DNA of 64,000 nucleotides from Thermoanaerobaculia bacterium (GCA_035468985.1 DATISF010000028.1:38937-102936); one strand, 5' to 3'; counted from the first letter of the stretch, positions 16,904 through 64,000 are shown. Notes: generated from the sequence alone by a model not told the origin. A program made the numbers and translations.

Positions 16904-16978
16904 GTCATCCTGAGCGGAGCGAACGACCTCAGGTTACGCGTCAGGAGATCCTTCGCCGTCTTCGCGGCTCAGGATGAC
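16904..16978. repeat. Short variant of the REP-like palindromic element
   Basis: The sequence is GTCATCCTGAGCGGAGCGAACGACCTCAGG...GAGATCCTTCGCCGTCTTCGCGGCTCAGGATGAC. Confidence 0.7.
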
Positions 16979-18349: not shown

Positions 18350-18860
18350 ATGACCAGGAACGGACGAAGCGCGCCGGCATGACGGCTGGGGAATCCTTGC
18401 GCAGGTCGTTGCTCACGTCATCCTGAGCCGCGAAGACGGCGAAGGATCTCGAAATGGTACGCGTTTTCGCATTCTGAGATCCTTCGTCGCGCTTCGCCGA
18501 CTCAGGATGACGTGAACATCCAGGGGCGGATGGCCACGGCAACGAGGGCGGCCACGACGATCGCCGACGATCGCCGCGCTCGCGGCCGGTGCAATCATTG
18601 CCCTGCTGACCAGGAACGGACGACGCGCGCCGGCATGACGGCTGGGGAATCCTTGAGCAAGTCGTTGTTCACGTCATCCTGAGCCGCGAAGACGGCGAAG
18701 GATCTCGAAATGGCACGCGTTTTCCCATCCTGAGATCCTTCGTCGCGCTTCGCCGACTCAGGATGACGTGAACATGGCCACGGCAACGAGGGCGGCCACG
18801 ACGATCGCCAACGATCGCCGCGCTCGCGGCCGGTGCAATCATTGCCCTGCTGACATGGTC
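18350..18860. repeat. Two tandem copies of a roughly 260-bp composite unit, each containing a reverse-oriented REP-like element (18396-18516 and 18651-18773) plus about 120 bp of spacer
   Basis: The segments starting with GACCAGGAACGGACGA at 18350 and 18609 are near-identical. The REP arms are GTCATCCTGAGCCGCGAAGACGGCGAAGGATCTC and GAGATCCTTCGTCGCGCTTCGCCGACTCAGGATGAC. Confidence 0.8.
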
Positions 18861-18874
18861 GCTGCGCTGCTTCC

Positions 18875-19984
18875 TCACTTCCGAATCGCTTCAGCGATGC
18901 GGACGACCTCCGACTCCATCTCCACGCCGAACTCGCTCCGAATCTCGTAGATCCAGCCGTAGAGGAGCTCGTTGAGGATGTTGTGCACGACCGCGCCACG
19001 GTCGGCCGAGCCGGACGCGATGAGATTGTTCAGCAGCTGATCGAAATCGATGCGGCCCTCATTGACGAAATTCATCCCGCTCAGGTAGGGCAGCGTCTCC
19101 GGCGAGAGCTGCAGGACCACACGGTCCATGAAGTCGTAGACGTGGTCACCGACCTTCTGAAGAACGAGGGCGAAGATCTGCTGGAACGCGGTGTTGTAGC
19201 GCTCGACGATCCCTTCGAGCTCGTACTCGGTCGCCTCGGCCTCACGCTTCTCGACGAGGTCCGCGCCGGCCGCGTCCTGCACGAGGTTGATCACCAGGAG
19301 TCCCCACAGCGTGCGGCAGGTCGAAAAGTTCGTCAGGTAGCTTCGCTTGCAGACACTTTCGACGGTTTGGGCGCTCTCGCCGAACAGCGAGAGAACGTGC
19401 CCTTCCTCGTCGTTGAGCTCCAGCTGGTAGGCGCGCGTATCGGCGCCGGGCACCTGTTCGAGAAGGCGGTCCAGTCTTCCGATGCCGCGCATGATCAGCG
19501 ACCAGAAGTCGATCGACTCCACTCCGTCCAGAACGAGACGCTCGGTCGAAAGCGGAAGGGTGATGATCTCGTCGGGAAAGTTCGACGTGAACTCGATCGT
19601 GTAACTGCCGGTCCGGTACCGCATGGCGTTGACCACGATCGCGCTCGACTGCCTCTCCACCGCGCGGCTCAGCTCCTCCGGCTTGAGGTAGCCGAGCTCG
19701 ACGAGCAGTGCGCCGATCCGCCGCGAGACGACCAGCCGGTCCATCACGTTGTTGTATTGCTGCAGATTCAGCTCGCCCGTGCGAAGCAGCGTTTCGGCGA
19801 GTCCGACGTCCTGATCGGTGGATGACGCGAAGATGATCCGCCCTTCGTTGAAGTAGATCGTGTCGTTGCGGCCGATGGCGTCGAGCGAAAGGATCGCCGT
19901 CTCGCCGGAACGGAGGATGGAACGGAAAAGGTCGGGGACAGTCGTCTCCGCCAGCGTGCCTTGAATCGAGAGTTCTTCGGACAT
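18875..19984 (-). CDS. DUF4388-domain protein
   Basis: The N-terminus, LAETTVPDLFRSILRSGETAILSLDAIGRNDTIYFNEGRIIFASS...GLAETLLRTGELNLQQ, matches the DUF4388 pattern. The start is taken at MSEELSIQ, directly downstream of the heptamer array. Confidence 0.6.
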   Translation of the reverse strand: MSEELSIQGTLAETTVPDLFRSILRSGETAILSLDAIGRNDTIYFNEGRIIFASSTDQDVGLAETLLRTGELNLQQYNNVMDRLVVSRRIGALLVELGYLKPEELSRAVERQSSAIVVNAMRYRTGSYTIEFTSNFPDEIITLPLSTERLVLDGVESIDFWSLIMRGIGRLDRLLEQVPGADTRAYQLELNDEEGHVLSLFGESAQTVESVCKRSYLTNFSTCRTLWGLLVINLVQDAAGADLVEKREAEATEYELEGIVERYNTAFQQIFALVLQKVGDHVYDFMDRVVLQLSPETLPYLSGMNFVNEGRIDFDQLLNNLIASGSADRGAVVHNILNELLYGWIYEIRSEFGVEMESEVVRIAEAIRK

Positions 19985-19986
19985 TT

Positions 19987-20045
19987 GGGATTCGGGATTC
20001 GGGATTCGGGGTTCGGGATTCGGGATTCGGGATTCGAGATTCGAG
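19987..20045. repeat. Tandem heptanucleotide array (GGGATTC) of about 8 units, with one GGGGTTC and one GAGATTC variant, filling the whole GGDEF-DUF4388 intergenic space
   Basis: The direct read is gggattc gggattc gggattc ggggttc gggattc gggattc gggattc gagattc. Confidence 0.85.
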
Positions 20046-21356
20046 CTACGTGGTGGCCGGCTTCGTCGCGTCTTCCACCGTGGCAACGCCCACCGAGTTC
20101 TTCGTCGTCGACTTCACCTTGTACATCGCGGTGTCGGCCTGGCGGATCAGGCCTTCCTTGGTGATGGCATGGGTCGGATACGTGGCGATGCCGAAGCTGG
20201 CGGTGATGGAGATCTCGACATTCGCGTCGACATTGAAGACCGTCGCCGTCATCGCCTTGCGCACGCGGTTGGCCACGGCCATGGCCTGATCGGAATCGGT
20301 CTGCGGCAGGATGATGCAGAACTCGTCGCCGCCGAACCGCACGACCTTGTCGATGGCGCGCACGGCGCCGAGGATCCGTTTGGCCACTTCCTGAAGCGTG
20401 CGCGATCCGGTGAGATGGCCGTAAAAGTTGTTGACCATCTTCAGGTCGTCGAGGTCGAGGAAGATGATGCTGAAGAGCGTCCCGTACCTGCGGGACCGCT
20501 CGATCTCCTCGTCGAGGTAGGACTCGAAGAAGCGACGGTTGAACGCTTTGGTCAGGTCGTCGCGCATGGCCAGGTCGCGGCTGCGCGTCAACTGGTAGAT
20601 GTTGCTCAACACCTGGCCGACCGCGGCCAGATACCGGCTCACGTTGAATGCGCCTTCGTCGGTGAACGCGTCCTTCGCCTGGAGCGGCACCTTGATGACG
20701 CCGATCAGGTCCTCGTTGACCTGCAGCGGCATGACGATCATGCCGGTCCCGTTTTTCTCCCGTTCTGAGGCGAGGAGATTTCCCGACGACAGAGCGCGCT
20801 GCAACAGTCCCGGCGGAACGCCGGGAAGAAACTCGCTGGTCTCGTGATAGCTCGAGTCGTTGCTGAAACTGACGACGTAGCGCTCCAGCCGGGGGTCGTG
20901 AAGGAAGAGCGTACCCGTCTCGAGTCCGAGGAGGTCGAGGACCGTGTGCGTGATCTTCTCCGACACTTCGTCGGCTTCGACCATCGACATCATTTCGTGG
21001 ATCTGCCCGAGGTAGGTGACTTCCTGCTCCAGTTGAGAGGCGTGAGCGGCGGTCTCGGCCAGGTCATCCGCGAAGTCGAGGTACTCACCAGGGTTGTTCA
21101 GAAAGGCATCGCGATTCACGCGGATCTCGCCGCGACGCCGTTGCGGCGGCACGTCGTTTTCGCAGAGGACGATCCGCACGAGACTCTTGCGCGGCGGGGA
21201 GTCGAGAACCTTGTGCGAGTCGGCGTCGATGACGACGATCCGCGACGGGTCGTCCCCTTCGCCTGCCGCGACGAAGTTGGATGACCGGCACGCCTCGCGA
21301 AGGCGTCGGACGAGGTCGCCCCGACCCGAATAGACACCGACAGATTGCTGGTTCAT
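20046..21356 (-). CDS. GAF-domain diguanylate cyclase (GGDEF)
   Basis: The central part has a GAF-like fold. The C-terminal GGDEF domain carries the RFGGDEF A-site, and an I-site-like RxxD lies upstream. Confidence 0.8.
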   Translation of the reverse strand: MNQQSVGVYSGRGDLVRRLREACRSSNFVAAGEGDDPSRIVVIDADSHKVLDSPPRKSLVRIVLCENDVPPQRRRGEIRVNRDAFLNNPGEYLDFADDLAETAAHASQLEQEVTYLGQIHEMMSMVEADEVSEKITHTVLDLLGLETGTLFLHDPRLERYVVSFSNDSSYHETSEFLPGVPPGLLQRALSSGNLLASEREKNGTGMIVMPLQVNEDLIGVIKVPLQAKDAFTDEGAFNVSRYLAAVGQVLSNIYQLTRSRDLAMRDDLTKAFNRRFFESYLDEEIERSRRYGTLFSIIFLDLDDLKMVNNFYGHLTGSRTLQEVAKRILGAVRAIDKVVRFGGDEFCIILPQTDSDQAMAVANRVRKAMTATVFNVDANVEISITASFGIATYPTHAITKEGLIRQADTAMYKVKSTTKNSVGVATVEDATKPATT

Positions 21357-21397
21357 TCGCGCGAAACGCTTAATTCTACAATGGGTTCGGCCGACAG

Positions 21398-22195
21398 ATG
21401 CGCATCGTCCAGATCGTTCTTCCCGCCGTCACCGCGTTCGAGGAGAAGTGCCGCCGCGTCGATCACTCGACTCTCTCCACGAGACACGAAGTCCTCGTCG
21501 CCGGACCGAAGGAACCTCTGCCCGCCGCGGATGTCGCCCACGTGTACGGCCCCGGCGAACTTCCGGCTGCTGCCTTCATCGGGTTTCGACTCCCTTATGT
21601 CGCATCCTCTGAGCCAGTTGGGCGGGCCTGGGTTCGAAAGCCGGCGCGGCCTGCCTACGTGCTGTCGCCGTTGGAGAGTCCGGAGCCGGTGGAGGAGGTC
21701 TTCTTCCAACTCGAGTCCCGAATCCCGAGCCCCGAGTCCCACGTGCTCGGATCGTTTGCGAGGTCGTCGATCGCCAACCTCATCGAGCAGACGCTGGGCC
21801 GCATTCGCCGTTTCCGCGACGATGTCGAGTGGCGGCTTTTCGAGCGCGCGCCGACGCCCGAGGATCTAGCCGGCGTAGACGCGTGGGTCGATCCTGCCAC
21901 CGCCGAGGATGATCTCGACGGCTTCGTCGCCGAGGCGCTCGTGTCGGGCAAACCCGTTGTGGCATCGAGAATTACGATCAATTTGCAGCGCCTCGAAAAA
22001 GGGCGCACCGGCTTCCTCGTTCCGCCGGGAGATCCCAACGAGCTCACTCATGCGATACTAACTGCCCTATTCAAGCCAGAGGTGGCGCGAACGAAAATTG
22101 AGGCAGCACGACAGACCGCCGGCAAGTTCCGGCCCAGGCAACGCCTTCGTCTGCTCGAGCGTATCTACGAGACCGTGATGAAGCCGTCATCCTGA
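21398..22195 (+). CDS. Truncated or degenerate family-1 (GT4-like) glycosyltransferase with an internal heptamer repeat
   Basis: The C-terminal half, FVAEALVSGKPVVASRI...GRTGFLVPPGDPNELTHAIL, is a GT4 C-terminal domain. The protein has only 265 aa against about 370 expected. A (GAGTCCC/GAATCCC) repeat lies at 21706-21733 in the middle. The 3' end runs into a REP-like hairpin. Confidence 0.4.
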   Translation: MRIVQIVLPAVTAFEEKCRRVDHSTLSTRHEVLVAGPKEPLPAADVAHVYGPGELPAAAFIGFRLPYVASSEPVGRAWVRKPARPAYVLSPLESPEPVEEVFFQLESRIPSPESHVLGSFARSSIANLIEQTLGRIRRFRDDVEWRLFERAPTPEDLAGVDAWVDPATAEDDLDGFVAEALVSGKPVVASRITINLQRLEKGRTGFLVPPGDPNELTHAILTALFKPEVARTKIEAARQTAGKFRPRQRLRLLERIYETVMKPSS

Positions 22196-22246
22196 GCGAA
22201 GCGAAGGATTCTCGTCCCCGAGACTCTTCGCTTCGCCCAGAGTGAC
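22186..22246. repeat. Short REP-like hairpin variant
   Basis: The sequence is GTCATCCTGAGCGAAGCGAAG-gattctcgtccccgagact-CTTCGCTTCGCCCAGAGTGAC. It overlaps the stop of the GT-like ORF. Confidence 0.6.
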
Positions 22247-22252
22247 GTCCAG

Positions 22253-23491
22253 ATGACCCGAATCCTCGAAATCCCGAATCCACAACGGCGAGCCATCGAT
22301 CTTGTGAAAGAGGTGGCGGCGGAGAAGGAATGCCGTCCATTCCTCGTCGGCGGTCCGGTGCGCGACCTGCTCCTCGGCCGCCCCGTCTCGGACGTCGATC
22401 TGACGCTCGAGGAGGGCAGCTCGGTCCTGGCCCGGGCGCTGGCCAAGAGAATCGAAGGCCGCGTCCGCTCTTACCCCCAGTTCCTGACGTACAAGGTCAG
22501 CGCCGACGGCTTTCCCGAGATCGACATCGCCACGGCCCGCAAGGAGAAGTACCGGGCACCCGGGGCGCTCCCGACCGTATCGGAAGGGAAACTCAAGGAC
22601 GACCTGCTGCGGCGCGATTTCGCGATCAACGCCATGGCCATGGATCTCCTCGACGGGACGATCCACGACCCGGCCGGCGGTCAGCATGACCTCTCCACGA
22701 GGGTCGTCCGCGTTCTTCACGACAACAGCTTCATCGACGACCCCACCCGCATCTTCCGCGCGATTCGCCTCGCCAAGCGTCTCGGATTCTCGATCGAGCA
22801 TCACACGGCGGAGTGGATGAAGCGCGCCATCGCCGGCGGCGCACTCTCGGCGGTCTCGCGCGAACGCTTGTGGCGCGAGCTGTTCCTGGCGATGGACGAG
22901 CGTGAGGCGCCGAAGATCCTCGTGGCGCTCCACAAGGCGCACGCGCTCGTTCCGATCTTCGGACTGGAATTGCGCGCCGGGAATCCTGATCCGTTCGAGA
23001 AAATCCGGCGCCAGGTCGAGGCGCAGCCGAACCTCGATCGCTACGTCCTCTACACGGGCATGCTGCTGCGCGGCACGGATGCGACGGCGGCGAACCTCGA
23101 AGGCTCGGGCTTCTCGCAGAAGCGCGCGCGGGCCGTGCTGCAGATCGCGCGCGACCTGTCGCGGTTCAAGAAAGCCCTCAACGGAGCGGCCTCCGACCGC
23201 CAGCGATTCCGGCTGTTCAAGACGATGTCTCCCGAACTGCTGATGCTCCTCGTGGCCGACCGCCCCGAGGAACGCACGAATGTGTCGCGATTCCAGGAGT
23301 TCCAGAAGTTCAAGCTGCCACTCCGCGGCGACGATCTCGAGGTGCCGGTCGGGCCGCATATCGCCCGGGCGCTCGAACGGACCCGCGAGGCGGTCTTCAG
23401 CGGGGAGATCCCGCCGGATCAGGCGCGTTCTTTTGCCCGCGGCCTGGCCATCAAGTATCTTAGTCGGGAGCAACCGGCCGATCCGAAATGA
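22253..23491 (+). CDS. cca: CCA-adding enzyme / tRNA nucleotidyltransferase
   Basis: The polymerase-beta head motif is FLVGGPVRDLLLG...DVDL. An RRDFAINAMA motif is present and the C-terminal helical tRNA-binding part is long. The first codons sit in a GAATCCC-type heptamer stretch. Confidence 0.75.
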   Translation: MTRILEIPNPQRRAIDLVKEVAAEKECRPFLVGGPVRDLLLGRPVSDVDLTLEEGSSVLARALAKRIEGRVRSYPQFLTYKVSADGFPEIDIATARKEKYRAPGALPTVSEGKLKDDLLRRDFAINAMAMDLLDGTIHDPAGGQHDLSTRVVRVLHDNSFIDDPTRIFRAIRLAKRLGFSIEHHTAEWMKRAIAGGALSAVSRERLWRELFLAMDEREAPKILVALHKAHALVPIFGLELRAGNPDPFEKIRRQVEAQPNLDRYVLYTGMLLRGTDATAANLEGSGFSQKRARAVLQIARDLSRFKKALNGAASDRQRFRLFKTMSPELLMLLVADRPEERTNVSRFQEFQKFKLPLRGDDLEVPVGPHIARALERTREAVFSGEIPPDQARSFARGLAIKYLSREQPADPK

Positions 23492-24294
23492 AGGTCTTGG
23501 TGAGATGTGCGGCGCTGATGATGGTGTTGGCGCCCCTCCCCGCTCTCGCGCAGACACCCCCTCCCGATCCCCCGCCGACGCACGACATCACGAAAGTCGA
23601 CCCCGCACCCCTGGGCGGCGCGATTGCCGTGCCGCTCCCTGAGGATCAGCTGCGCCAGATGCGGAAGTACGGGCTGGACGAGCTCGCGGGCAGCCGTCAG
23701 GCCATCGGATCGCAGCTCATCGACGGCCACCTTCCGCGGCCGCTCCTCGATTACTACGTGCACAGCGGCAACATCGATCAACGATTGTCGATCTTCGAGC
23801 GCGGTCTGGTGGTCATCCGGATGACGGGCGCAGGCGGCATCATTCAGAAGCGCGTGATCATTCCGGACGGCGCAGTCAGGAAATACCTCGAATCCGCGGC
23901 GCCGGAGAAGATCGAGCAGATCCGAACCACCGAGTTGCGCGATCCGACGCAGAACCGCATCGCATTCCTGCGCGTGTACCGCGACGGCGCGACGTTCGTC
24001 GAACGCGTATTCGATCCCTCCCTCGCGCCGCCGAAGATCCTGCACGACGCGGTGCTCCCCATCGAGGACCTTCTCCGCGCGATCTCCGAGGACCGCGAGG
24101 TGACGAGCACGCTGGCGGGCTACGAACCGCATGTCGGCGACGAGCTGGTCGGCGACGACCGCAAGACCTGGCGCGTGGAGCGGATCATCTCCAGCAGCGG
24201 CATCGTCGAGCTGCACTGCACGTCGCAGCCGATGGTCATGTACGTCGCGAAGAAGGATCTGTACAACTACTTCGTCGGGCGTCCCAGTCAATGA
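23488..24294 (+). CDS. Secreted hypothetical protein
   Basis: There is a signal peptide, MKVLVRCAALMMVLAPLPALAQ. No recognisable domain was found. The ORF is tightly packed between cca and rsmD. Confidence 0.45.
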   Translation: MKVLVRCAALMMVLAPLPALAQTPPPDPPPTHDITKVDPAPLGGAIAVPLPEDQLRQMRKYGLDELAGSRQAIGSQLIDGHLPRPLLDYYVHSGNIDQRLSIFERGLVVIRMTGAGGIIQKRVIIPDGAVRKYLESAAPEKIEQIRTTELRDPTQNRIAFLRVYRDGATFVERVFDPSLAPPKILHDAVLPIEDLLRAISEDREVTSTLAGYEPHVGDELVGDDRKTWRVERIISSSGIVELHCTSQPMVMYVAKKDLYNYFVGRPSQ

Positions 24295-24298
24295 GGTG

Positions 24299-24880
24299 AT
24301 GTCGTCCCTCCGAATCACGGCCGGAACCCTTCGCGGCCGCCGCATCCCTGTTCCGCGCGGCGACGTCCGACCGACATCCGAACGCGCTCGTCAGGCGTAC
24401 TTCAACATCGTCGGCGACCGGATCGCCGGCGCGAGCTTTCTCGATCTTTTCGCCGGCAGCGGCATCTTCTCGTTCGAAGCGGTGTCGCGCGGTGCGGCAT
24501 CATCGACGGCCATCGATCGCGACACGGCCGGAATTGCGAAGCAGGCCGAAGACCTCGGCGTAACCAACATCCAAACGATTGCCGGTGATGCTCTGAGCGC
24601 GCTGAAACGCCTGCCCGCCGAACGGTTCGATCTCGTCTACGCCGATCCGCCGTACGACTATGACCGCTACGGCGATCTGCTCGAAGCGATCGAAAAAATC
24701 CATCTCGCCGATGAGGCGATCGTGGCGGTGGAACACAGACGCCGCACAGATCTGTTCAACCGAGGACCGAGGAGCGGGGACCGAGGACTGAAATCTCTGC
24801 GCCGCGCCGAATACGGCGAGGTGTGGATCACGTTCTTTCAGGCTGAGACTGCCACAGGAATTGCAATGGAAAACGAATGA
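24299..24880 (+). CDS. rsmD: 16S rRNA (guanine966-N2)-methyltransferase
   Basis: RsmD motifs are present: FLDLFAGSG (SAM-binding) and VYADPPY (catalytic). The start is the ATG at 24299 just after the upstream stop. Confidence 0.8.
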   Translation: MSSLRITAGTLRGRRIPVPRGDVRPTSERARQAYFNIVGDRIAGASFLDLFAGSGIFSFEAVSRGAASSTAIDRDTAGIAKQAEDLGVTNIQTIAGDALSALKRLPAERFDLVYADPPYDYDRYGDLLEAIEKIHLADEAIVAVEHRRRTDLFNRGPRSGDRGLKSLRRAEYGEVWITFFQAETATGIAMENE

Positions 24881-25851
24881 GGACTATGGAACTCACACTA
24901 GACGAACAGGGCGCCCACACACTTTTCGGCAATCACGATGAAAACCTCCGCATGCTCGAGGAAGCCTTCGATGTGAAGATCTCTTCGCGCGGCAACGAGA
25001 TCTTCGTCAAGGGCCCCGCCGAGAACGTCGCTCCGGTCGAGAAGCTCCTCGCGCAGATGCAGGAGCTCATCGGCCAGGGCTATCCGGTCAGGAAATCGGA
25101 CGTGCTGACCGGCGCGCGCGTCCTGCGCGACAAGCCGGATGTGAACCTGGTCGACTTCTTCACCGACGATGCCGTCGGCCAGTCGGTGCGCCGCGTCGTC
25201 ACACCCCGCAACTTCGCACAGAAGCTCTATCTGCAGTCGATCCAGGAGTACGACATCACGTTCGGCATCGGTCCGGCCGGCACTGGGAAGACGTTTCTCG
25301 CCGTCGCCGCCGCCGCCGCATGGCTGAACGAGAAACAGATCAAGCGCATCATCCTCTGCCGCCCCGCCGTCGAAGCCGGCGAGCGCCTCGGCTTTCTTCC
25401 GGGTGACATCGCCGAAAAGGTCAACCCCTACCTGCGGCCGCTCTACGACTCGCTGTACGACATCGTCGGATTCGAGAAAGTCGAGAAACTGATGGAGCGC
25501 AGCATCATCGAGATCGCGCCGCTCGCCTTCATGCGCGGCCGCACGCTCAATGACGCGTTCATCATCCTCGACGAAGCGCAGAACACCACTCCCGAGCAGA
25601 TGAAAATGTTCCTCACGCGCCTCGGCTTCGGTTCGAAAGCCGTGGTCACCGGCGATGTCACACAGGTCGATTTGCCGGAGGGAAAAAAGTCGGGACTGCG
25701 CGCGGCGCGGAAGATCCTCGAGAACGTCGAGGGCATCAAGTTCTTCGATTTCACCGACAAGGATGTCGTCCGCCATCCGCTCGTCTCGAAGATCGTGGGC
25801 GCCTACGACCGCGCCGACCGCGAAGCGCAGCCCGCGAAATCGTCGTCATGA
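24877..25851 (+). CDS. phoH: PhoH-family ATPase
   Basis: The Walker A is GPAGTGKT. The motifs ILDEAQN and the C-terminal PhoH pattern are conserved. It lies upstream of ybeY, as in many bacteria. Confidence 0.85.
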
Positions 25852-26282
25852 ACATCGAGGTCACCGGCCATGCCGTTCCGCGGCTGACCCGGCGCGAGAT
25901 CGCTGCGTTCGTGAGAAGAGTGCTCCTGAAACTCGATGTCGACGAAGAAATCACGGACGTGTCCATCGCATTCGTCGACGACCCGTCGATGAAGAGCCTC
26001 AACCGGAAATTCCGGCACAAGAACCGGACCACCGACGTGCTCACCTTCCCTGCCGATGAGACCTACGGCGATCCGCACCGCAAGGGCAAACCACTCGGCG
26101 ACATCGTCGTTTCCGTCGATCAGGCCAGGCGCCAGGCCGCCGAAGAGCGCCATTCCATCGCAACGGAGGTCCGCTATCTGCTCGTGCACGGCGTCCTTCA
26201 CGCACTCGGCTATGACCACGAGAACGACAACGGAGAGATGAACGAGCTGGAGCTTGATGTGCGGGAGGCCGTGGGCCTCTAA
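25848..26282 (+). CDS. ybeY: Endoribonuclease YbeY (rRNA maturation factor)
   Basis: The zinc-binding motif HGVLHALGYDHE is present. The size is typical at 144 aa. Confidence 0.85.
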   Translation: MNIEVTGHAVPRLTRREIAAFVRRVLLKLDVDEEITDVSIAFVDDPSMKSLNRKFRHKNRTTDVLTFPADETYGDPHRKGKPLGDIVVSVDQARRQAAEERHSIATEVRYLLVHGVLHALGYDHENDNGEMNELELDVREAVGL

Positions 26283-26287
26283 GGGAA

Positions 26288-26942
26288 CCTCCGCGCAAGT
26301 CGTCATCCTGAGTCGGCGAAGCGCGACGAAGGATCTCAGGATTCGAAAACACGTGCCATTTCGAGATCCTTCGCCGTCTTCGCGGCTCAGGATGACGTGA
26401 ACGACGACTTGCGCAGAGGTCCACAAGTACTGCTGTGGCACGGTAAGTACTGCTGTGGCCGCGGCGCAGCACATCGATCTTCTCTCGCATATGACGGTGT
26501 CGCACTTCGCATCGCTGTTCAGGGATGTCCCCTAGGGAAGCTCTGCACAAGTCGTTGATCACGTCATCCCGAGTCGGCGAAGCGCGACGAAGGATCTCCG
26601 GATGCGATAACGCCTGCCATTTCGAGATCCTTCGCCGTCTTCGCGGCTCAGGATGACGTGAACGACGACTTGCGCAGAGGTCCACAAGTACTGCTGTGGC
26701 CACGGCAAGTACTGCTGTGGCCGCGGCGCAGCGCATCGATCTTCCCTCGCATATGACGGCGCTGCACTTCGCATCGCTGTTCAGGGATGTCCCCTAGGGA
26801 AGCTCTGCACACGTCGTTGATCACGTCATCCTGAGTCGGCGAAGCGCGACGAAGGATCTCCGAATGCGACAACGCCTGCCATTTCGAGATCCTTCGCCGT
26901 CTTCGCGGCTCAGGATGACGTGAACAACGACTTGCGCAGAGG
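26288..26942. repeat. Tandem array of three REP-like elements (26288-26419, 26539-26680, 26802-26942) separated by two near-identical roughly 115-bp spacers
   Basis: The period is about 250-260 bp. The spacers contain the internal direct repeat AAGTACTGCTGTGGC twice. Confidence 0.85.
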
Positions 26943-26946
26943 TCGA

Positions 26947-28092
26947 CTAGAACTCGATGATGCCGTCCTTCCAGAGCTTGTAGAAGATCATCAGCGCATC
27001 GGCCTCTCGGATCGGGCTGATCTTGATCAGCGATCCAATGTCCCACGTTCCGTTGATGCGCGAGAGGATGAAGCCCTCGTTCGGAGTGAAGTTCATGGTC
27101 GTGATCTCTTCGAGCGACTTCGTGACGCGGGGGACTTCGTTGTCGTGAATCCCCTGATTCCGCAGTTCGGCCATGATGACCGCCTCGGCGCCCTTGACCG
27201 CGCTGCGGACTTTCGGGTGATTGGAGTCGAGATTCTGCGCCGCCTTCAGCAGCCGCTGGGTCTTGTCGAAGTCCTTGGCGCGTAGTGCGGTCTGGGCGGC
27301 GCTGAGGAGCGAGTTGATCTCGTCGGACTCGTTGAAGCCCGCTTCCACCGCCGGGAACGGCTCCGGCTCGGCAGGCGCCCCGCCCGCCACCGCCGCTTCC
27401 AGCAGCTGAATGAACCCGGCCCGCACGAGCGGGCGCAACGTCGAACAGACGATGAATGACGACGAACGGCTTTCCAGCACGATCTCGGCGATGGTCCGCT
27501 TGCCGTCGATCGAGTCGATCACCTGTGTCTGTGCCTCGCCGAATTCTTCATCGACCTCGATCGGCTTCTGCACCACCGGCACGACCGCGTCGTTCGGAAT
27601 CACCTCGCGGATCCGCGGCCATTCGTCCGATCGCCGCGTCCCCTCCATGATGATCCCGGTGACGTCGATGCGCAGCGGCACCATTTCCATCTGTGGCAAC
27701 TCGTCGTCGAGGAATTGGAAAGTCCCCTCTTTCCACAGGAAGACGTCGAAGATCTCCTCCTCCGCCTTGAGGCGCATGAGCCGCGTCAGGTCCTTCTCGG
27801 TGATGAGGCCAATGATGACCAGAATCTTGCCGAGAAGGATGCTCGACTGCTGCTGGACCTCCATCGCCTTGCGCAGCTCTTCCTCGTTCAGATAGCCGTG
27901 GCTCATCAGGAACTGGCCGAGGTATTCGCGGGGATCGTTGGATGCGGAGGAGATGACGCGGCCGGACTCGAAGAAGATCTTCTTTTCGACGTCCTTGCTG
28001 GTGACGACGAGAGTGCCGGTCTTCTGCGCCAGGCTCAACCACTGAAGCAGGTCGCCCGGCAGCATCGACTTCAGGTTACCGCTGACTCCCAT
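26947..28092 (-). CDS. DUF4388-domain protein, second paralog
   Basis: The N-terminus, LPGDLLQWLSLAQKTGTLVVTSKDVEKKIFFESGRVISSASND...LGQFLMSHGYLNEEEL, matches the DUF4388 pattern. Confidence 0.6.
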   Translation of the reverse strand: MGVSGNLKSMLPGDLLQWLSLAQKTGTLVVTSKDVEKKIFFESGRVISSASNDPREYLGQFLMSHGYLNEEELRKAMEVQQQSSILLGKILVIIGLITEKDLTRLMRLKAEEEIFDVFLWKEGTFQFLDDELPQMEMVPLRIDVTGIIMEGTRRSDEWPRIREVIPNDAVVPVVQKPIEVDEEFGEAQTQVIDSIDGKRTIAEIVLESRSSSFIVCSTLRPLVRAGFIQLLEAAVAGGAPAEPEPFPAVEAGFNESDEINSLLSAAQTALRAKDFDKTQRLLKAAQNLDSNHPKVRSAVKGAEAVIMAELRNQGIHDNEVPRVTKSLEEITTMNFTPNEGFILSRINGTWDIGSLIKISPIREADALMIFYKLWKDGIIEF

Positions 28093-28150: not shown

Positions 28151-28219
28151 CTCCTCGGTTCTCGGTCGAGAATTGGTTCGGGGGAAACCGAGGACCGAGG
28201 ACGGGAGGACCGAGGACCG
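28151..28219. repeat. Inverted repeat built from CGAGGAC-type heptamers in the divergent DUF4388/mcm promoter region
   Basis: The left arm is CTCCTCGGTTCTCGGTCG. The right arm is CGAGGACCGAGGACGGGAGGACCGAGGACCG. Confidence 0.5.
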
Positions 28220-36224: not shown

Positions 36225-36405
36225 GCGTCGTCGTTGACGGACGACAGGACGGACGTGTCGCCGGCAATCCTTGCCGCCTGGTTGAAGGCGTTGATCGACT
36301 CCGGCTCGACGAAGATCTCGGCCTGCCCGAGCTTCACGCGGTAGTTCAGCGACAGATCGAGCGCGTTCTGGTTGTCCCAGCGACAGGTCCAGGTGAACTT
36401 CATCA
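36225..36405 (-). pseudogene. Remnant of the C-terminal about 60 residues of a TonB-dependent receptor paralog
   Basis: The translation WDNQNALDLSLNYRVKLGQAEIFVEPESINAFNQAARIAGDTSVLSSVNDDALAPF aligns to the C-terminus of the intact receptor at 37076-37400 (WDTVNALDLSINYKLRVGRAELYLEPELINAFNQAAKIAGSTTVFSAVNDSHLEPF). Identity is about 65%. The fragment has no upstream receptor body. Confidence 0.55.
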
Positions 36406-36860: not shown

Positions 36861-36868
36861 CTAAGGAA

Positions 36869-37010
36869 CCTCCGCGCAAGTCGTCGTTCACGTCATCCTG
36901 AACCGCGAAGACGGCGAAGGATCTCGAAATCGCGGCGTCTTGCGCATCCTGAGATCCTTCGTCGCGGTTCGCCGACTCAGGATGACGACTTGTGCAGAGG
37001 TTCTGTCTCA
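36869..37010 (-). repeat. REP/MITE-like palindromic element in reverse orientation
   Basis: The sequence is CCTCCGCGCAAGTCGTCGTTCACGTCATCCTGAACCGCGAAGACGGCGAAGGATCTC...GAGATCCTTCGTCGCGGTTCGCCGACTCAGGATGACGACTTGTGCAGAGG. Confidence 0.85.
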
Positions 37011-37075: not shown

Positions 37076-40003
37076 TTAGAACCTCGCTCCGAAGGACACG
37101 CGATACGTGCGCATCAGCGCGTAGTCGGAAGCGTTACGGGCCTGGCCGAATGTCGAACTGAACCGATAGTTCTTTCCAAGGACCGGCTTCTCCGTAAAGG
37201 GATTGAAGGGCTCGAGATGGCTGTCGTTGACCGCCGAGAAGACTGTCGTGCTGCCGGCGATCTTCGCAGCCTGGTTGAATGCGTTGATCAGCTCGGGCTC
37301 CAGGTACAGCTCCGCGCGGCCGACTCTCAGCTTGTAGTTGATCGAGAGGTCGAGCGCGTTGACCGTGTCCCAGCGGTGATTGCCGCGCTGGCCGTCCAGG
37401 TAATAGTTCACCGACGACGGGGCACCGGCGTAGTAGCTGGTCACGCTCTCAGGGAGGTACTGGCTGGGATCGATCTGCAGAAGAGCCGAGTACGGCGTAC
37501 CCGTGTCGATGCGCTCCAGGGCGCTGAACACGAAGTTGCCGACGTGGGTGGGCACGGCCCACGTCGCCCATGCGCGGACCTTGTTCGTCTCATCCGACGG
37601 CAGGAAGCCGACCGGGTTGTTCTCCGCGAAGGCCTTGTACTCCGGATACTGGAAGATGGTCTCGGGGACCGGGCCGACGCCGGGCGTCTCCGCCGTGACG
37701 TTGCCGCGGGTCTTGGCGTAGGTGTAGTTGGCGCCGAACTGCACGTGCTGAGTGAACGGATAGGCGGCCTGGATGCTCGCCGCACGGTAGGTGCGCTCGA
37801 GGTTCTGGTCGCTGGTGAAAATCTGCTGGATGTCGTTCGGATTGCCGAACTGGTCCACGACCTGGCCCGTGGACTGGTCGACGCGGTTCGCGTAGAAATT
37901 GCCCCAGTTGCGGTTGATCAGGTCGAGGCGGACGAAGCCCTTTCCGATCTGCGAGCCGGCGCCCAACGTGACCTCGTTGACGTCCGGTGATTTCAACGAT
38001 CCGAGGATCTTGGTGTTGAGGCCCGGGATGACGCCGAAGAACGGCTGCACGCCGTTCACGCCACCCTGAGACTGGAACCAGTTGTACATGGTCTGGAACG
38101 CCGTCACCGTGTCGACGCCGCAGTTCGCGGTGCCCGGCGTGCAGCCCGGCGCGTTGATGGCCGGTCCGCGATACCGATAGAAGATGTAGGCCGGGTTGCC
38201 GGCGCCGGTCGCGCCGTTGCCGACCGTCTCGGCGATCTTCGCCGCATACTTGCTGTAGCTGGCGTTGAAACGCAGGCGGCCGTTGCCAAGCACGTCATAC
38301 GTGGCGCCGAGCCGCGGCTCGAACGTGGAGTCGTTCGCGCGCGTGAAGCCCGACGCGTCCTTGCCGTTGTTCTTGTCGTAGCGGAGTCCGAGCGTGAAGC
38401 CCCAGTGCGTGTTCAGGTCCCACTTGTCGTTCACGTAAAGCGAACGGGTGACGAAGTTCGAGCCTTTGGTCAGCTCGAAGATCGGGAACCACACGATGAT
38501 GTCGCGGTTCGGACTGATGACCGGGTGGAACGTGTCATTCGGACCGGAAACCGGCGTCTGCTCGCCGAACGTGTACACGCCGAAGTTGGAGCCCGACTGA
38601 TAGTTGTTCGAAATGTGCTGCTCGGCCCAATCCTGGTAGCCGGCGCTGACGCTGTGTGTGCCGAGGCTCTTGGACGCGAGGTAGTAGGACAGCTTCAGGT
38701 CCCAGGTCTTGTTGTTGCGCTGTTCCGATCCGCAGTCGGAGCAGAACACCGGCGCGCCGAAGAACTGACCTTCGTTGAGGTCGAGACCCCAGCTGCCGTG
38801 CGCGAAGTCGGCGGTCGGGCCGCCGCCGTCGACGAACGCGAAGAACTTCTTCGACCAGTTCGCCTCGACGAGAACGCTGTCGGTGAGGATGCCGCTGTAG
38901 TGCGCGGTCTTGAAGCTGTTCGGGGTCTCGCGCGACGGATCGATGCTGGAGAACTCGTAGCAGCCGAACAAGCAGACCCCCGTCTGCGGGTTCTTGATGT
39001 CGAGGTACGACACGACCACGCTGTGCTTCGGCGTGATCTGGCCGGTCAGCTTGCCTTCATAGCGCGTGTTCTTCGAAACGGCCTGGAACTTGACGTTCGA
39101 GTTCGTCAGGAAGTTGTCGGTGCCGATCTTTGCCGAACGGGCCGCGCCGAAGAACCACAGGCGGTCGCGCACGATGCGTCCGCCGAGGGTTGCTTCATAC
39201 ACGCTGTCGATGTGATCGGTCGGGTCGGGCTGATGCGGATCGGGAGTCTTGGTCGTCCAGTTGTTATTGGTCAGGGAGTCGCGGATCGAGCCGCTGAACT
39301 CGTTGCCGCCCGACTTCGTGATCGCGTTGACCACGCCGCCGGTGAAGCGGCCGTACTCGGCCGAGATCGCGCCGGTGAGCACCGTCTGCTCCTGGATCGC
39401 GTCCTCGATGAACAGATTGTGGATCTGGCTCCGGAGGTTTTCGTTGATGACCGCGCCGTTGACCATGTACAGATTCTCGTGAGCCGGTGCGCCGGAGATC
39501 ACCAGCTGCCCGGGTGTGGGCGTGTTGGTGTTCACGTTCGGCGCGATCGACGCCTGCGCCTGGAACGTGCGTCCCACCGGAAGGTCCTCGACGAGCTCCT
39601 GCTTCACGTTCGTCTGGATCTCCTGCGTTTCCAGCACGGCCGGAGCGCTGGCGGTGACGGTGATCGCCTCGGCCACCGCCGAGAGCTTCAACTCCGCGTC
39701 CGCGCGCCCGGTCTGGCCGAGGCCGACCACCGCGTGGCGCGTCACGGGTTGCATGCTCTCCATTTCGAATTTGACCGTGAAGTCGCCCGGCGGAACCGCG
39801 CCGAAAATGAAATTGCCGTTCACGTCGGTGTAGGCCGTACGCGTCCCCTGCATCGCCGGCGAGGAGATGGTGACGGTGACACCGGGGAGAGCGCTCCCCT
39901 CCGTGACGACGTGGCCGGTGAGACTCGACGTGGTCTGTGCCCACGCCGCTGTGCTGCATAAGAGCAGCAGGACTGCTAAACAGGTTCGACTGAACTTCAT
40001 CAA
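37076..40003 (-). CDS. TonB-dependent outer-membrane receptor with an N-terminal carboxypeptidase-regulatory-like domain
   Basis: A signal peptide is followed by a CarbopepD_reg pattern (GHVVTEGSALPGVTVTIS...TDVNGNFIFGAVPPGDF). A plug region follows, then the long beta-barrel. The C-terminus ends in an aromatic residue (...VSFGARF). Confidence 0.8.
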   Translation of the reverse strand: MMKFSRTCLAVLLLLCSTAAWAQTTSSLTGHVVTEGSALPGVTVTISSPAMQGTRTAYTDVNGNFIFGAVPPGDFTVKFEMESMQPVTRHAVVGLGQTGRADAELKLSAVAEAITVTASAPAVLETQEIQTNVKQELVEDLPVGRTFQAQASIAPNVNTNTPTPGQLVISGAPAHENLYMVNGAVINENLRSQIHNLFIEDAIQEQTVLTGAISAEYGRFTGGVVNAITKSGGNEFSGSIRDSLTNNNWTTKTPDPHQPDPTDHIDSVYEATLGGRIVRDRLWFFGAARSAKIGTDNFLTNSNVKFQAVSKNTRYEGKLTGQITPKHSVVVSYLDIKNPQTGVCLFGCYEFSSIDPSRETPNSFKTAHYSGILTDSVLVEANWSKKFFAFVDGGGPTADFAHGSWGLDLNEGQFFGAPVFCSDCGSEQRNNKTWDLKLSYYLASKSLGTHSVSAGYQDWAEQHISNNYQSGSNFGVYTFGEQTPVSGPNDTFHPVISPNRDIIVWFPIFELTKGSNFVTRSLYVNDKWDLNTHWGFTLGLRYDKNNGKDASGFTRANDSTFEPRLGATYDVLGNGRLRFNASYSKYAAKIAETVGNGATGAGNPAYIFYRYRGPAINAPGCTPGTANCGVDTVTAFQTMYNWFQSQGGVNGVQPFFGVIPGLNTKILGSLKSPDVNEVTLGAGSQIGKGFVRLDLINRNWGNFYANRVDQSTGQVVDQFGNPNDIQQIFTSDQNLERTYRAASIQAAYPFTQHVQFGANYTYAKTRGNVTAETPGVGPVPETIFQYPEYKAFAENNPVGFLPSDETNKVRAWATWAVPTHVGNFVFSALERIDTGTPYSALLQIDPSQYLPESVTSYYAGAPSSVNYYLDGQRGNHRWDTVNALDLSINYKLRVGRAELYLEPELINAFNQAAKIAGSTTVFSAVNDSHLEPFNPFTEKPVLGKNYRFSSTFGQARNASDYALMRTYRVSFGARF

Positions 40004-41454: not shown

Positions 41455-41546
41455 CGGTCCTCGCTCCTCGCTCCTCGGTCCTCGGTTGGTTCCGAGGAGC
41501 ACTCCCAGACCCACACGGCCGGTCGGCTCTCCTGAACTCTCTCCGC

Positions 41547-44963: not shown

Positions 44964-45782
44964 TCAGAGCGTCACCAGCTCCAGGTTCTCGATCTCGTGC
45001 TCGAGGAACTCTCCGGCAATGCGGCGGAAACGCTCCTCGGCATCGGTGACCAGAAACGTGTGGAGCGAGGGGCGTCCTCGCGCGCCGGCGGCCGATGACG
45101 GCCGCCGCTGCACGGCTTTCTTCACCCACTTCGCCGTGGTCTCCGCGCTGTCGACGATCTGGACCTTGTCGCCGACCACGCTCTCGATCGTGGCGCGCAG
45201 GATCGGATAGTGCGTGCATCCCAGGACGAGCGTGTCGATCCCGGCGTCGACGAGCGGCTCGAGGTAGATCTCCGCGACCTCGCGCGCGACGTGCGTGTTC
45301 GCCCACCCTTCTTCGGCAAGCGCCACGAACAACGGCGCGGCCGACTCGATGACCTCGATTTGCGCGTCGAGCGCATGAATCGCCTTCGTGTACGCCTTCG
45401 ACTTCACCGTGCCTTCCGTGGCGATCACCCCGATCTTTCCGGACGTGCACTCGATCGCCGCTCTGGCACCCGGTTCGACGACGCCGATCACGGGAATGGG
45501 AAGTTCCGCGGTGAGCGTCGGCAGCGCCGCCGCCGTTGCCGTGTTGCAGGCGATCACGAGCAGCTTGATGCCGCGATCGAGAAGATGCCTGGCGGCCTGA
45601 CGCGAGTAGCGGATCACGATCTCCGGCGACTTCGTCCCGTACGGCACGCGCGCCGAGTCGCCGAGGTACACGAGCGCTTCGCCGGGAAGAGCGCGCGCGA
45701 TTTCGCGAAACACCGTGAGCCCGCCCACACCGGAATCGAAGATGCCGATGGGACGGGATCCGTTACTGCGCTTCGCTCCCAT
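44964..45782 (-). CDS. murI: Glutamate racemase
   Basis: The N-terminus reads IGIFDSGVGGLTV, and the two catalytic Cys contexts are ACNTA and GCTHYP. Confidence 0.85.
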   Translation of the reverse strand: MGAKRSNGSRPIGIFDSGVGGLTVFREIARALPGEALVYLGDSARVPYGTKSPEIVIRYSRQAARHLLDRGIKLLVIACNTATAAALPTLTAELPIPVIGVVEPGARAAIECTSGKIGVIATEGTVKSKAYTKAIHALDAQIEVIESAAPLFVALAEEGWANTHVAREVAEIYLEPLVDAGIDTLVLGCTHYPILRATIESVVGDKVQIVDSAETTAKWVKKAVQRRPSSAAGARGRPSLHTFLVTDAEERFRRIAGEFLEHEIENLELVTL

Positions 45783-47157
45783 CCGGCACCACCCCCGCAC
45801 CTGTTTCGCGTTTGATGTTGTACTGCTCGATCTTCTTGTAGAGATTCGATCGCGGCGTGTCGATCGCTTCGGCGGTGCGGGAGACGTTCCAGCCGTACTC
45901 GCGCAGTTTGGCGAGGATGAAGGCCTTCTCCGCCTCGTCCTTGAAATCCTGCAGCGTCGACATCTTCATGGCGCTGGAAATGATGTCGCTCGGGGCGCGG
46001 AAGAACTCAGCGGGCAGATCGCCGATGTCGATCGCGTCGCCCGGCACCATGATCACCAGCCGCTCGATCATGTTCCGCACCTCGCGGACGTTGCCGCGCC
46101 ACGCCGCGTCCTGCAGCGCCTTGAGCGCCGCGGGCGCGAACGTTTTCGGGTGGTAGTTGTGCTCCTCGGAAAAAAGGCGCGCGAAGTGCTGCGCCAGAAC
46201 CGGGATGTCGTCGCGCCGTTCGCGGAGCGGCGGCGTGCGGATCGGAATCACGTTGAGACGATAGTAGAGATCCTCGCGGAAGCGCCCTGTCTTGATCTCC
46301 TCGGTCAGGTCCTTGTTCGTCGCCGCGATCACGCGCACGTCGACTTTGATGACGCTGGCCGCGCCGACCGGCTCGACTTCACCCTCCTGCAGAACGCGGA
46401 GAACTTTCGCCTGCGTGCGCAGCGACATGTCGCCGACTTCGTCGAGAAAAATCGTCCCGCCGTCGGCGGCGACGAATTTCCCGGTCTGTTTTCGGACCGC
46501 GCCGGTGAATGAGCCCTTTTCGTGCCCGAAGAGCTCCGACTCGATCAGCTCCTCCGGAATTGCCGCGCAGTTGACCTGGATGAACGGCGCGGACGCTCGT
46601 GAGGAGCGGCGATGGATCTCGCGTGCGACGAGCTCCTTGCCGGTCCCCGATTCGCCGGTGATCAGGACCGTGGCTTTCGTGGGAGCGGCGCGATCGACCA
46701 GAGACTTGAGCTCGCGCATCGACGCCGAGTCGCCGACGAGCTGATACTCCTTCTCCGCTTTCGAGCGCAGCTCGGTGTTCTCTTCCTCCACCTGGCGCAG
46801 GCGCACCGCGTTGCGCACGGTCAGCAGAAGCTTGTCGCGGTTCAGCGGCTTCTCGAGAAAATCGAACGCGCCGCGTTTCGTGCACTCGACCGCCGTGTGC
46901 ACGTCGCCATGTCCCGAAACCATCACCACGGGCGACGACACCCGCTGCTGCTTGAGATTCTCGAGGACTTCGATGCCGTCGAGGACCGGCATCTTGATGT
47001 CGAGCAGGATCACGTCGTAATCGGTGCGGGTCGCTTTGTCGATGGCCTCCTGTCCCGAGCGCGCCTCGTCGATCCGGTAACCCTCGTATTCGAGCGTCAT
47101 CCGGATCGCCTCGCGGATCCCGGTCTCGTCGTCGACGACTAAAACGCGATAAGCCAT
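45763..47157 (-). CDS. Sigma-54-dependent two-component response regulator (NtrC family)
   Basis: It has a receiver (VLVVDDE...LLDIKMP), an AAA+ sigma-54 activator domain with GESGTGKE and GAFTGA, and a C-terminal Fis-type HTH. Confidence 0.85.
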   Translation of the reverse strand: MAYRVLVVDDETGIREAIRMTLEYEGYRIDEARSGQEAIDKATRTDYDVILLDIKMPVLDGIEVLENLKQQRVSSPVVMVSGHGDVHTAVECTKRGAFDFLEKPLNRDKLLLTVRNAVRLRQVEEENTELRSKAEKEYQLVGDSASMRELKSLVDRAAPTKATVLITGESGTGKELVAREIHRRSSRASAPFIQVNCAAIPEELIESELFGHEKGSFTGAVRKQTGKFVAADGGTIFLDEVGDMSLRTQAKVLRVLQEGEVEPVGAASVIKVDVRVIAATNKDLTEEIKTGRFREDLYYRLNVIPIRTPPLRERRDDIPVLAQHFARLFSEEHNYHPKTFAPAALKALQDAAWRGNVREVRNMIERLVIMVPGDAIDIGDLPAEFFRAPSDIISSAMKMSTLQDFKDEAEKAFILAKLREYGWNVSRTAEAIDTPRSNLYKKIEQYNIKRETGAGVVPDGSEAQ

Positions 47158-63832: not shown

Positions 63833-64000
63833 GACCTCTGCGCAAGTCGTCATCCTGAGTCGGCGAAGCGCGACGAAGGATCTCAGGATGCGAAAACGCG
63901 GCGATTTCGAGATCCTTCGCCGTCTTCGCAGATTGCGGGAACTCATCAGGAGGCGGGTGACTCGGGATTCAGTCCGGTGATCGACGGGCGCAGCGTCATG
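63739..64000. repeat. Direct duplication of about 190 bp (3' end of the OMP gene plus the truncated REP). The second copy starts at 63929 and runs off the window.
   Basis: The segments 63739-63810 and 63929-64000 are identical except for 1 mismatch. The junction is at the microhomology CGCAG. Confidence 0.75.
63833..63928 (+). repeat. Truncated REP-like element (left arm and loop only)
   Basis: The sequence is CCTCTGCGCAAGTCGTCATCCTGAGTCGGCGAAGCGCGACGAAGGATCTC...GAGATCCTTCGCCGTCTTCGC. It is then interrupted. Confidence 0.8.

Follow-up and report, generated by a model that had tools for sequence, protein, structure and literature searches.

How do composite units, each made of a palindrome and a piece of neighbouring DNA, come to stand in tandem in a bacterial genome? 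The question is raised by an array at 26282-26950 of a 64,000-nt stretch from a Thermoanaerobaculia bacterium (DATISF010000028.1, 38937-102936; below, the window, with coordinates counted from its start; GC content 64%), where three palindromes of about 135-160 nt alternate with two spacers. The reading preferred here, with a probability of roughly two in three, is that this and the other composites of the window arose by amplification in place, in tandem, of a palindrome and the DNA beside it, and are not copies of a larger mobile unit: a repeat resembling MITEs (miniature transposable elements with inverted repeats) would have been amplified by slippage and then by unequal exchange. The arrangement of palindromic mobile elements and their flanks in tandem is already known from Pseudomonas; the phenomenon is real but mostly ordinary. 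With the window, its known range comes to include a remote lineage from soil, probably of the Acidobacteriota, in which the arrays are seen in assembled contigs.

Structure of the array and of the other composite loci

Tandem repeats were located by Tandem Repeats Finder (TRF) and by self-BLAST of the window. The sole long-period array found by TRF is at 26301-26944 (period 262, 2.5 copies, 95% matches, score 1167), and self-BLAST aligns 26301-26692 with 26562-26954 at 94.7% identity over 393 nt. The first-pass annotation described this region as three REP (repetitive extragenic palindromic) elements and two near-identical 115-bp spacers with a period of about 255 bp. The three palindromes and the similarity of the spacers (93.75% identity) are indeed observed, but the spacers are 111 nt (S1, 26421-26531) and 112 nt (S2, 26682-26793) long, and the measured period is 261-262 nt. 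The small direct repeat noticed twice in the spacer is a 21-nt tandem sub-repeat, AAGTACTGCTGTGGC, with two copies in S1 (at its start, 26424-26464) and in S2 alike (26685-26726). S2 is 100% identical in an independent contig, L002.

The array is bounded by ybeY (PF02130; 25848-26282, plus strand) upstream and by a convergent gene with a PatA_N/DUF4388 domain (PF14332; 26947-28092, minus strand). The first palindrome, D1 (26282-26420, plus orientation), starts in the tetranucleotide CTAA that contains the stop codon of ybeY, and its 5' arm is without a 9-nt segment found in the other two. The last one, D3 (26794-26950, plus), has CTAG at both flanks, and the right CTAG contains the stop codon of the PatA_N gene. 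The middle one, D2 (26532-26681, plus), is a hybrid: in the alignment its 5' flank, 9-nt insert and loop are those of D3, and its 3' end is that of D1. The switch falls within a 52-nt stretch identical in D1, D2 and D3. Such a D3/D1 hybrid is predicted for an unequal exchange between the outer copies, and thus the middle palindrome points to unequal crossover at the 26-kb array (locus D).

At 18.4 kb (locus C), the first-pass annotation had a different 260-bp unit, REP plus a distinct spacer, duplicated at 18350-18860. This agrees with the self-BLAST, in which 18351-18610 matches 18607-18854 with 92.3% identity over 260 nt and one 12-nt indel; the unit itself measures 256 nt. Unit 1 (18351-18606, minus) consists of a 40-nt flank, a palindrome in minus orientation with a truncated 5' outer arm (18391-18518), and an 88-nt flank, and unit 2 (18607-18854, minus) is its head-to-tail copy (92%). 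The junction and both outer boundaries have TGAC in common, with endpoints 40 and 88 nt outside the palindrome.

A tandem duplication at 63.7 kb (locus F; 63732-64000 and beyond, period 195, 98.6% identity), like that of locus C a simple one arranged head to tail, had been overlooked. The repeated segment consists of the last ~100 nt of an open reading frame (ORF), including its stop codon in CTAG, and the first ~100 nt of the palindrome, both present twice. Segment X in its first copy (63732-63828, plus) covers most of the end (63729/63730-63832) of this 399/412-aa ORF, whose stop codon is in CTAG at 63829-63832. The palindromic unit (63829-63929, plus) has its right arm truncated at the duplication junction ...CGTCTTCGC/AGATTGCGGG, and the second copy of X (63927-64000, plus) runs past the end of the window. 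In contig L119, a palindrome of full length comes after the second X, and then CTAG and an 87-aa ORF in convergent orientation. The junction shares CGC with the start of the unit, and one endpoint is inside the right arm of the palindrome. Thus the endpoints at loci C and F are non-specific and carry 3-4 nt of microhomology, which indicates slippage.

The pair of palindromes at 1.0-1.5 kb (locus A) is not a simple duplication. Two REP elements bracketed by a 40-bp direct repeat had been placed at 1031-1498, and this description stands: the copies of the repeat (1030-1069 and 1458-1497, both plus) are 92.5% identical and lie on either side of two palindromes. The first repeat copy ends in CTAG abutting R1 (1066-1212, plus), which is complete at 140 nt and bordered by CTAG left and right. 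It is followed by the single-copy spacer Y (1208-1321) and by R2 (1322-1457, plus), in which the 3' outer arm is truncated directly against the second repeat copy.

All four large tandem duplications of the window enclose a palindrome. Composites are observed at four of the six loci with full-length units, and a seventh locus has only a short core-only copy without outer arms (16905-16978, plus). The latter had been overlooked, as had a solitary 140-nt unit at 36.9 kb (locus E; 36861-37008, minus), which is not duplicated. Every copy adjoins at least one gene 3' end, and at loci D, E and F the genes on the two sides are convergent.

The spacers and flanks are local. No copies of S1/S2, the locus C flanks, spacer Y, the 40-nt repeat or segment X were found elsewhere in the window or in 1.35 Mb of fetched related loci, same-strain contigs aside, and therefore the composites are taken as local amplifications. 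The first-pass annotation had raised the question of whether the spacers occur elsewhere attached to REPs; in the DNA covered here they do not.

Independent contigs from the same population, found through exact-protein matches in ENA assembly ERZ27272673 and in Logan run SRR9691032, confirm all four composite loci, although not each of them over its full length. Contig k141_771185 shows 100% identity over 26554-64000 and extends beyond the window, covering part of D2, S2, D3 and the whole locus F duplication. Contig k141_1109439 matches 18474-26424 without a mismatch and crosses the junction of locus C units 2 and 1 (L208), and k141_481471 covers R2, Y and a part of R1 at 1.1-1.5 kb. The Logan contigs are 100% identical, one of them with a single mismatch; four out of five end at or inside a palindrome, and one (L209) stops about 1.2 kb before locus C. 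For a comparison of filled and empty sites, the only syntenic relative is L126 (73-80% identical), and it does not extend over a repeat locus.

Two of the four composite loci are situated just downstream of paralogous PatA_N/DUF4388 genes (18875-20086 and 26947-28092, both minus), which may be a coincidence given n = 2. The solitary locus E palindrome has on its sides a 140-nt direct repeat of 75.7% identity (36230-36367 and 37223-37360), probably related gene segments. At locus A, a third copy of the 40-nt repeat occurs in inverted orientation at 887-919. The shared sequence of about 30 nt, GCGAAAGYCGGTCTNTTTGCGACANGCCAC, is thus present at 887-919, 1035-1067 and 1463-1492, once inverted, and the inverted pair 887-919/1035-1067 surrounds a GC-rich hairpin at approximately 921-954. 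Possibly these copies represent the termini of another small element, which would account for the direct repeat of locus A.

The palindromic unit and its affinities

The unit is a long imperfect palindrome, with inverted arms of 36 and 34 nt forming one long hairpin and inner arms GTCATCCTGAGTCGGCGAAGCGCGACGAAGGATCTC and GAGATCCTTCGCCGTCTTCGCGGCTCAGGATGAC around a loop of about 25 nt. The 20-nt arm motif occurs nine times in the window (0.11 expected). For the hairpin in DNA form, the predicted free energy is -58 kcal/mol (z = -10.5); for the RNA of each of the two strands it is about -100 kcal/mol (z = -11 to -12). Each arm is in turn an imperfect palindrome, formed by an ATCCT/AGGAT stem, a tandem G.A and an inner hairpin. 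The unit is non-coding and shorter than 200 bp; ORFs crossing it are spurious.

A uniform 140-nt unit with the outer arms of the window type is found in the window and in the related loci L119, L132 and L162. Complete units carry at both ends 19-nt outer terminal inverted repeats, GGAAGCTCTGCACAAGTCG and its complement, and the outer arms enclose a palindromic core of about 94 nt, GTCATCCTGAG..CGAAGGATCTC - loop - GAGATCCTTCG..CTCAGGATGAC. Direct flank repeats (CTAG/CTAG, TTAG/TTAG, CTGG/CTGG) accompany three of the six testable copies of the window type. In relatives there is a second type of outer arm, GAGGCTGTGAAAAAATC, and in all four of its copies CTCAG or CTGAG is directly duplicated on the flanks. 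Units of this second type are often found inside the CTCAG of an arm of another core, with CTCAG duplicated, so that the palindromes are nested (L135, L142, L169, L193, L149).

The tetranucleotide YTAR is depleted in the window relative to the expectation from base composition: CTAG occurs 19 times (about 215 expected, an approximately 11-fold under-representation), CTAA 8 times (about 125), TTAG twice (about 122) and TTAA three times (about 71). The ends of the units abut 7 of the 19 CTAG and 2 of the 8 CTAA sites, that is, 9 of the 32 YTAR sites. Most of these are in stop codons, among them those of the locus F ORF and of both genes bounding the 26-kb array, ybeY and PatA_N. Since the putative YTAR/CTAG targets in this GC-rich genome are mostly stop codons, copies would land just after genes. 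By providing a stop codon or lying against one, the elements are able to reshape the 3' ends of genes.

The outer arms coincide with the verified end of the insertion sequence IS5 of E. coli, GGAAGGTGCGAACAAGTCC, at 12-14 of 19 positions, a likeness noticed after the fact and limited to the ends. IS5 generates a 4-bp YTAR duplication, in agreement with CTAG, TTAG and CTAA at the ends of the units. Judging from the ends, the transposase behind the unit may have been IS5-like. Pairs of matching ends in the fetched DNA are 123-146 nt apart, except for 318 nt in L177, and no segment of insertion-sequence size was found between them.

The unit agrees with most of the features of the MITEs of bacteria, for example ERIC/IRU, Correia/NEMIS, RUP and YPAL (Delihas 2008, PMC2229807): it is shorter than 200 bp and non-coding, has terminal inverted repeats, would yield long stem-loop transcripts, and lies beside gene ends; TA-containing termini with a putative target-site duplication are seen in a part of the copies. 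In relatives, the palindrome often centres a local dyad symmetry, similar to the YPAL targets (PMC2229807). In contrast to these MITEs, the unit is GC-rich, its core crosses phyla with at least two types of outer arm, and no partner insertion sequence was found in the fetched DNA. Tandem amplification together with flanks is not mentioned in that review, where the word "tandem" does not occur. The unit is thus considered here as a non-autonomous MITE-like element of about 140 nt around an older palindromic core, with REP doublets mobilized by a REP-associated tyrosine transposase (RAYT) as the main rival. The earlier label "REP" is only loosely right, because inverted repeats at the termini and duplicated flanks are MITE-like traits of the unit, and no RAYT was found in the fetched DNA.

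Similar to the E. coli bacterial interspersed mosaic elements (BIMEs), the palindromes are of the REP type and cluster in extragenic space after genes. BIMEs have alternating REP orientation and a small set of conserved linker motifs, whereas the palindromes of the window are all direct repeats, separated by duplicated flanks that differ from locus to locus; by orientation and spacer content the array is thus no BIME. The resemblance to CRISPR arrays is one of appearance, the alternation of repeats and spacers: the repeats are palindromes of 135-160 nt in two or three copies, and the spacers are not unique but near-identical (93.75%). The remark of the first-pass annotation that the array is CRISPR-like only in periodicity therefore applies.

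No Rfam family matches the window at gathering scores, and a permissive scan of the array gives only sub-threshold chance matches, mostly with hairpin models of miRNA precursors. A hammerhead-like reading of CUGAG...CGAAG was rejected, as the core bases N7-G8-A9 are missing, in agreement with Rfam.

Origin of the composites and rival explanations

The proposed scenario has two steps. Firstly, the long hairpin would stall or misalign replication, and the nascent strand would re-anneal a few hundred bases back at a microhomology of 3-4 nt and recopy the segment; this would yield the duplications at 18.4 and 63.7 kb. Secondly, once two palindromes in direct orientation are present, homologous unequal exchange may add or remove units. 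Slippage within sub-repeats of 10 and 21 nt would produce the fine variation. At locus D, the spacer S may be the original ~110-nt intergenic DNA between ybeY and the PatA_N gene, with one element inserted at the stop codon of each gene; an exchange between these two elements would then give D1-S1-D2(hybrid)-S2-D3. The junctions (non-specific endpoints, 3-4 nt of microhomology, a hybrid copy) thus offer a mechanism in which the arrays are made by replication slippage and subsequent unequal exchange and not by a transposase. The first-pass annotation had proposed slipped or unequal-crossover amplification, and the TGAC and CGC microhomologies and the hybrid D2 bear it out. The role of the hairpin and the order of events are the more conjectural parts of this scheme.

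A number of observations weigh against amplification of a MITE-like repeat. Three of the six testable units have no clean flank duplication, and CTAG is itself palindromic, so that what is counted as duplication could in part be sequence of the element. Neither an IS5-type transposase (tblastn with InsH) nor a RAYT (E. coli RayT; tblastn and phmmer) gave a significant match in the window and 1.4 Mb of fetched loci. The duplicated units differ by 1.4-8%, similarly to palindromes at different loci, and therefore the arrays are old and stably inherited, not visibly dynamic. In the related set, obtained by a metagenome scan with the exact arm of this lineage (80 loci, 73-80% identity), the palindrome is nearly always solitary: there are about 98 copies and no comparable composite. 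Hence the hairpin alone is not sufficient for amplification. Locus A fits neither step, since R2 is cut where copy 2 of the 40-nt repeat begins and beyond this copy there is no palindrome; moreover, the outer arms of R1 and R2 look swapped. An inversion model for this swap was dropped, as on paper it predicts the wrong arm pattern.

The assemblies bear on both sides. In favour of the preferred reading, all differences between the contigs and the window are inside composite loci, with the indels in sub-repeats and none in about 16 kb of flanking sequence: seven at locus A (within 1128-1215), indels of 10 and 12 nt at locus C (18518-18564) and, beyond D1, a 20-nt deletion that drops one 21-mer together with single-nucleotide polymorphisms (SNPs), after which the downstream region is another one. 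The last case, which counts against it, is a part of contig k141_1109439 (L001, 5574-6000), which joins ybeY-D1 (100% identical) to a third version of the spacer with one 21-mer and four SNPs. There follow a palindrome with a differing 3' half, a tRNA gene, a small ORF resembling a Zn finger, and hemB, with no PatA_N gene. This join is either an ectopic exchange between palindromes in a part of the population or a chimeric join, and the assembly differences in general are either real population variants or noise of the assembly graph. Two of the differences are in the single-copy spacer Y, which favours a real variant. In any case these loci are points where otherwise identical assemblies break, fork and disagree, which is relevant for metagenome assembly and strain typing.

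The strongest competitor of local amplification of a MITE-like unit, although considerably less probable, is that the units are REPINs, inverted REP doublets mobilized by a single-copy RAYT, and the arrays are ordered REPIN clusters as in P. fluorescens SBW25. Sixteen such clusters were described in that genome, and they are missing from some REPIN-bearing genomes (Bertels and Rainey 2011, PMC3116915). Ordered clusters were also noted for E. coli, with no mechanistic explanation offered yet (PMC3337134). The architecture is much the same: a hairpin palindrome with its flanks is in tandem (f1-element-f2, in agreement with Fig. S7 of PMC3116915 as the text of that paper describes it), in two to five copies and a few hundred bases, at several extragenic places per genome, and is absent from some relatives. 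The units are also extragenic and high-copy, two inverted arms fold into one long hairpin, and an end-anchored inner stem of at least 4 bp is present in 41% of 111 distinct arms compared with 5% of shuffles, as would suit REP doublets. The window adds to the literature on REPIN clusters two microhomology junctions and one hybrid middle copy. However, the sequence family and the phylum are different, and the units have terminal inverted repeats and flank duplications of 4-5 nt (3/6 of the window type, 4/4 of the sister type). The latter, together with the ends resembling those of an insertion sequence, are unexpected for HUH single-strand transposition, as the IS200/IS605-type reaction inserts without target-site duplication. 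The core is common to several phyla and viral contigs, whereas vertical inheritance and lineage specificity are ascribed to REPIN-RAYT systems in bioRxiv 10.1101/2022.05.22.493013. The failure to find a RAYT homologue in 1.4 Mb is weak evidence, because RAYTs are single-copy; the best hit (E = 0.67, L197) is antisense inside a Lon protease gene and is spurious.

It is rather unlikely that the arrays are kept by selection, be it for stacked hairpins acting as transcription barriers or stabilizers of mRNA 3' ends, or for a small RNA or peptide of the spacer. The hairpins are predicted to be very stable as RNA on both strands, the copies stand beside gene 3' ends, in part between convergent genes, and the divergence of 5-8% between the units shows that they have lasted for some time. 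In enterobacteria, mRNA stability is influenced by ERIC and REP elements (PMC2229807). On the other hand, the YTAR target alone accounts for the placement at gene ends, and the spacers are wholly different between loci. The 26-kb array contains neither a promoter consensus nor a U-tract terminator. The folds of S1 and S2 disagree (z = -0.5 and -3.8), and the one ORF common to both has only non-synonymous substitutions and a 1-nt indel upstream, hence no coding signal; Rfam gives no match. The first-pass annotation would have been contradicted by spacers that are unique sequences or encode a conserved small protein or RNA, and what is observed is a pair of near-identical copies with neither a conserved fold nor a coding signal. 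An origin of the spacer from a decayed 3' end of the PatA_N gene was also considered and rejected, as the local alignment score of 20 is equalled in 400 of 3152 control windows.

Finally, it is very improbable that assembly has created the tandem units artificially, by mis-joins at repeats or by placing strain variants in a row, even though the source of the window is an uncultured community, palindromes are the places where independent contigs break or fork, one of these contigs joins D1 to a different downstream region, and the differences are confined to composite loci: the copies differ by 1.4-8% including indels, unlike the usual exact artefact duplication, one MEGAHIT contig has the whole locus F duplication and part of D2, S2 and D3 at 100% and another crosses the locus C junction, a second run is represented by Logan contigs that agree as far as they reach, and the same architecture is present in an isolate genome, that of Ravibacter arvi.

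The palindromic core in other genomes

A less expected and more surprising by-product than the arrays is the distribution of the core. The pattern GTCATCCTGAG-N10-20-CGAAGGATCTC, with 22 specified bases matched exactly, was found in more than 115 species-representative genomes (at least 115 stretches), whereas by our arithmetic about 0.75 matches are expected by chance. The matches listed include Acidobacteriota, Verrucomicrobiota, Patescibacteria, Omnitrophota, Chloroflexota, Clostridia, Bacteroidota, Legionellaceae, Aquificota and Cyanobacteria, and among them are isolate genomes of Sulfurihydrogenibium, Adlercreutzia, Ravibacter and Fodinibius. Apart from these genome loci (L004-L118), the core occurs in 32 IMG/VR viral contigs (L210-L241).

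The architecture is constant: two inverted arms, each with conserved blocks around a variable insert or inner hairpin (in the window, for example, at 26301-26398). In relatives the core is 92-95 nt long, is bounded by C/GTCATCC...GGATGAC/G, the slash marking the boundary, and is often situated at the centre of a locus-specific dyad symmetry. Composites were found at 6 of the 115 cross-phylum loci, among the matches listed. The Ravibacter arvi isolate, from another phylum, has four palindromes with spacers of about 55 nt and a period of approximately 172-183. In each of the viral contigs L214, L231 and L238 there are two same-strand arm matches exactly 130 nt apart, so that one group of viruses may carry the element as a tandem pair.

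One possibility, tentative and more doubtful than not, is that the core of about 94 nt, C/GTCATCCTGAG-[variable hairpin]-CGAAGGATCTC ... GAGATCCTTCG-[variable hairpin]-CTCAGGATGAC/G, is an undescribed ancient structured module that spreads horizontally, is carried in different MITE shells, often centres local palindromes, and provokes tandem amplification of itself and its flanks. In that case, a general process driven by hairpins would have the arrays of the window as one of its local manifestations, and the arm motif would be a putative binding site for a conserved partner. The core motif has no match in Rfam and no mention in the literature searched; a literature search by sequence yielded only unrelated primers for the arms and no papers for peptides of spurious ORFs such as VILSEAKDL. 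A gene at 45763-47157 that recurs in four loci selected by the motif was considered as linked to the repeat. It encodes an NtrC-family sigma-54 activator, which is multi-copy, and the recurrence is thus explained by paralogy.

In several relatives the core is flanked by inverted pairs of heptamer arrays, e.g. (GGCAGAA)n ... (TTCTGCC)n (L123, L126, L140, L152/L182). A similar inverted pair, CCTCGGG x4.9 and CCGAGGC x4.1, is present in the window at 54988-55081 with no core between its halves, possibly an "empty" target, and further heptamer arrays are found at 19983-20043, 24759-24788, 28187-28219 and 41455-41486.

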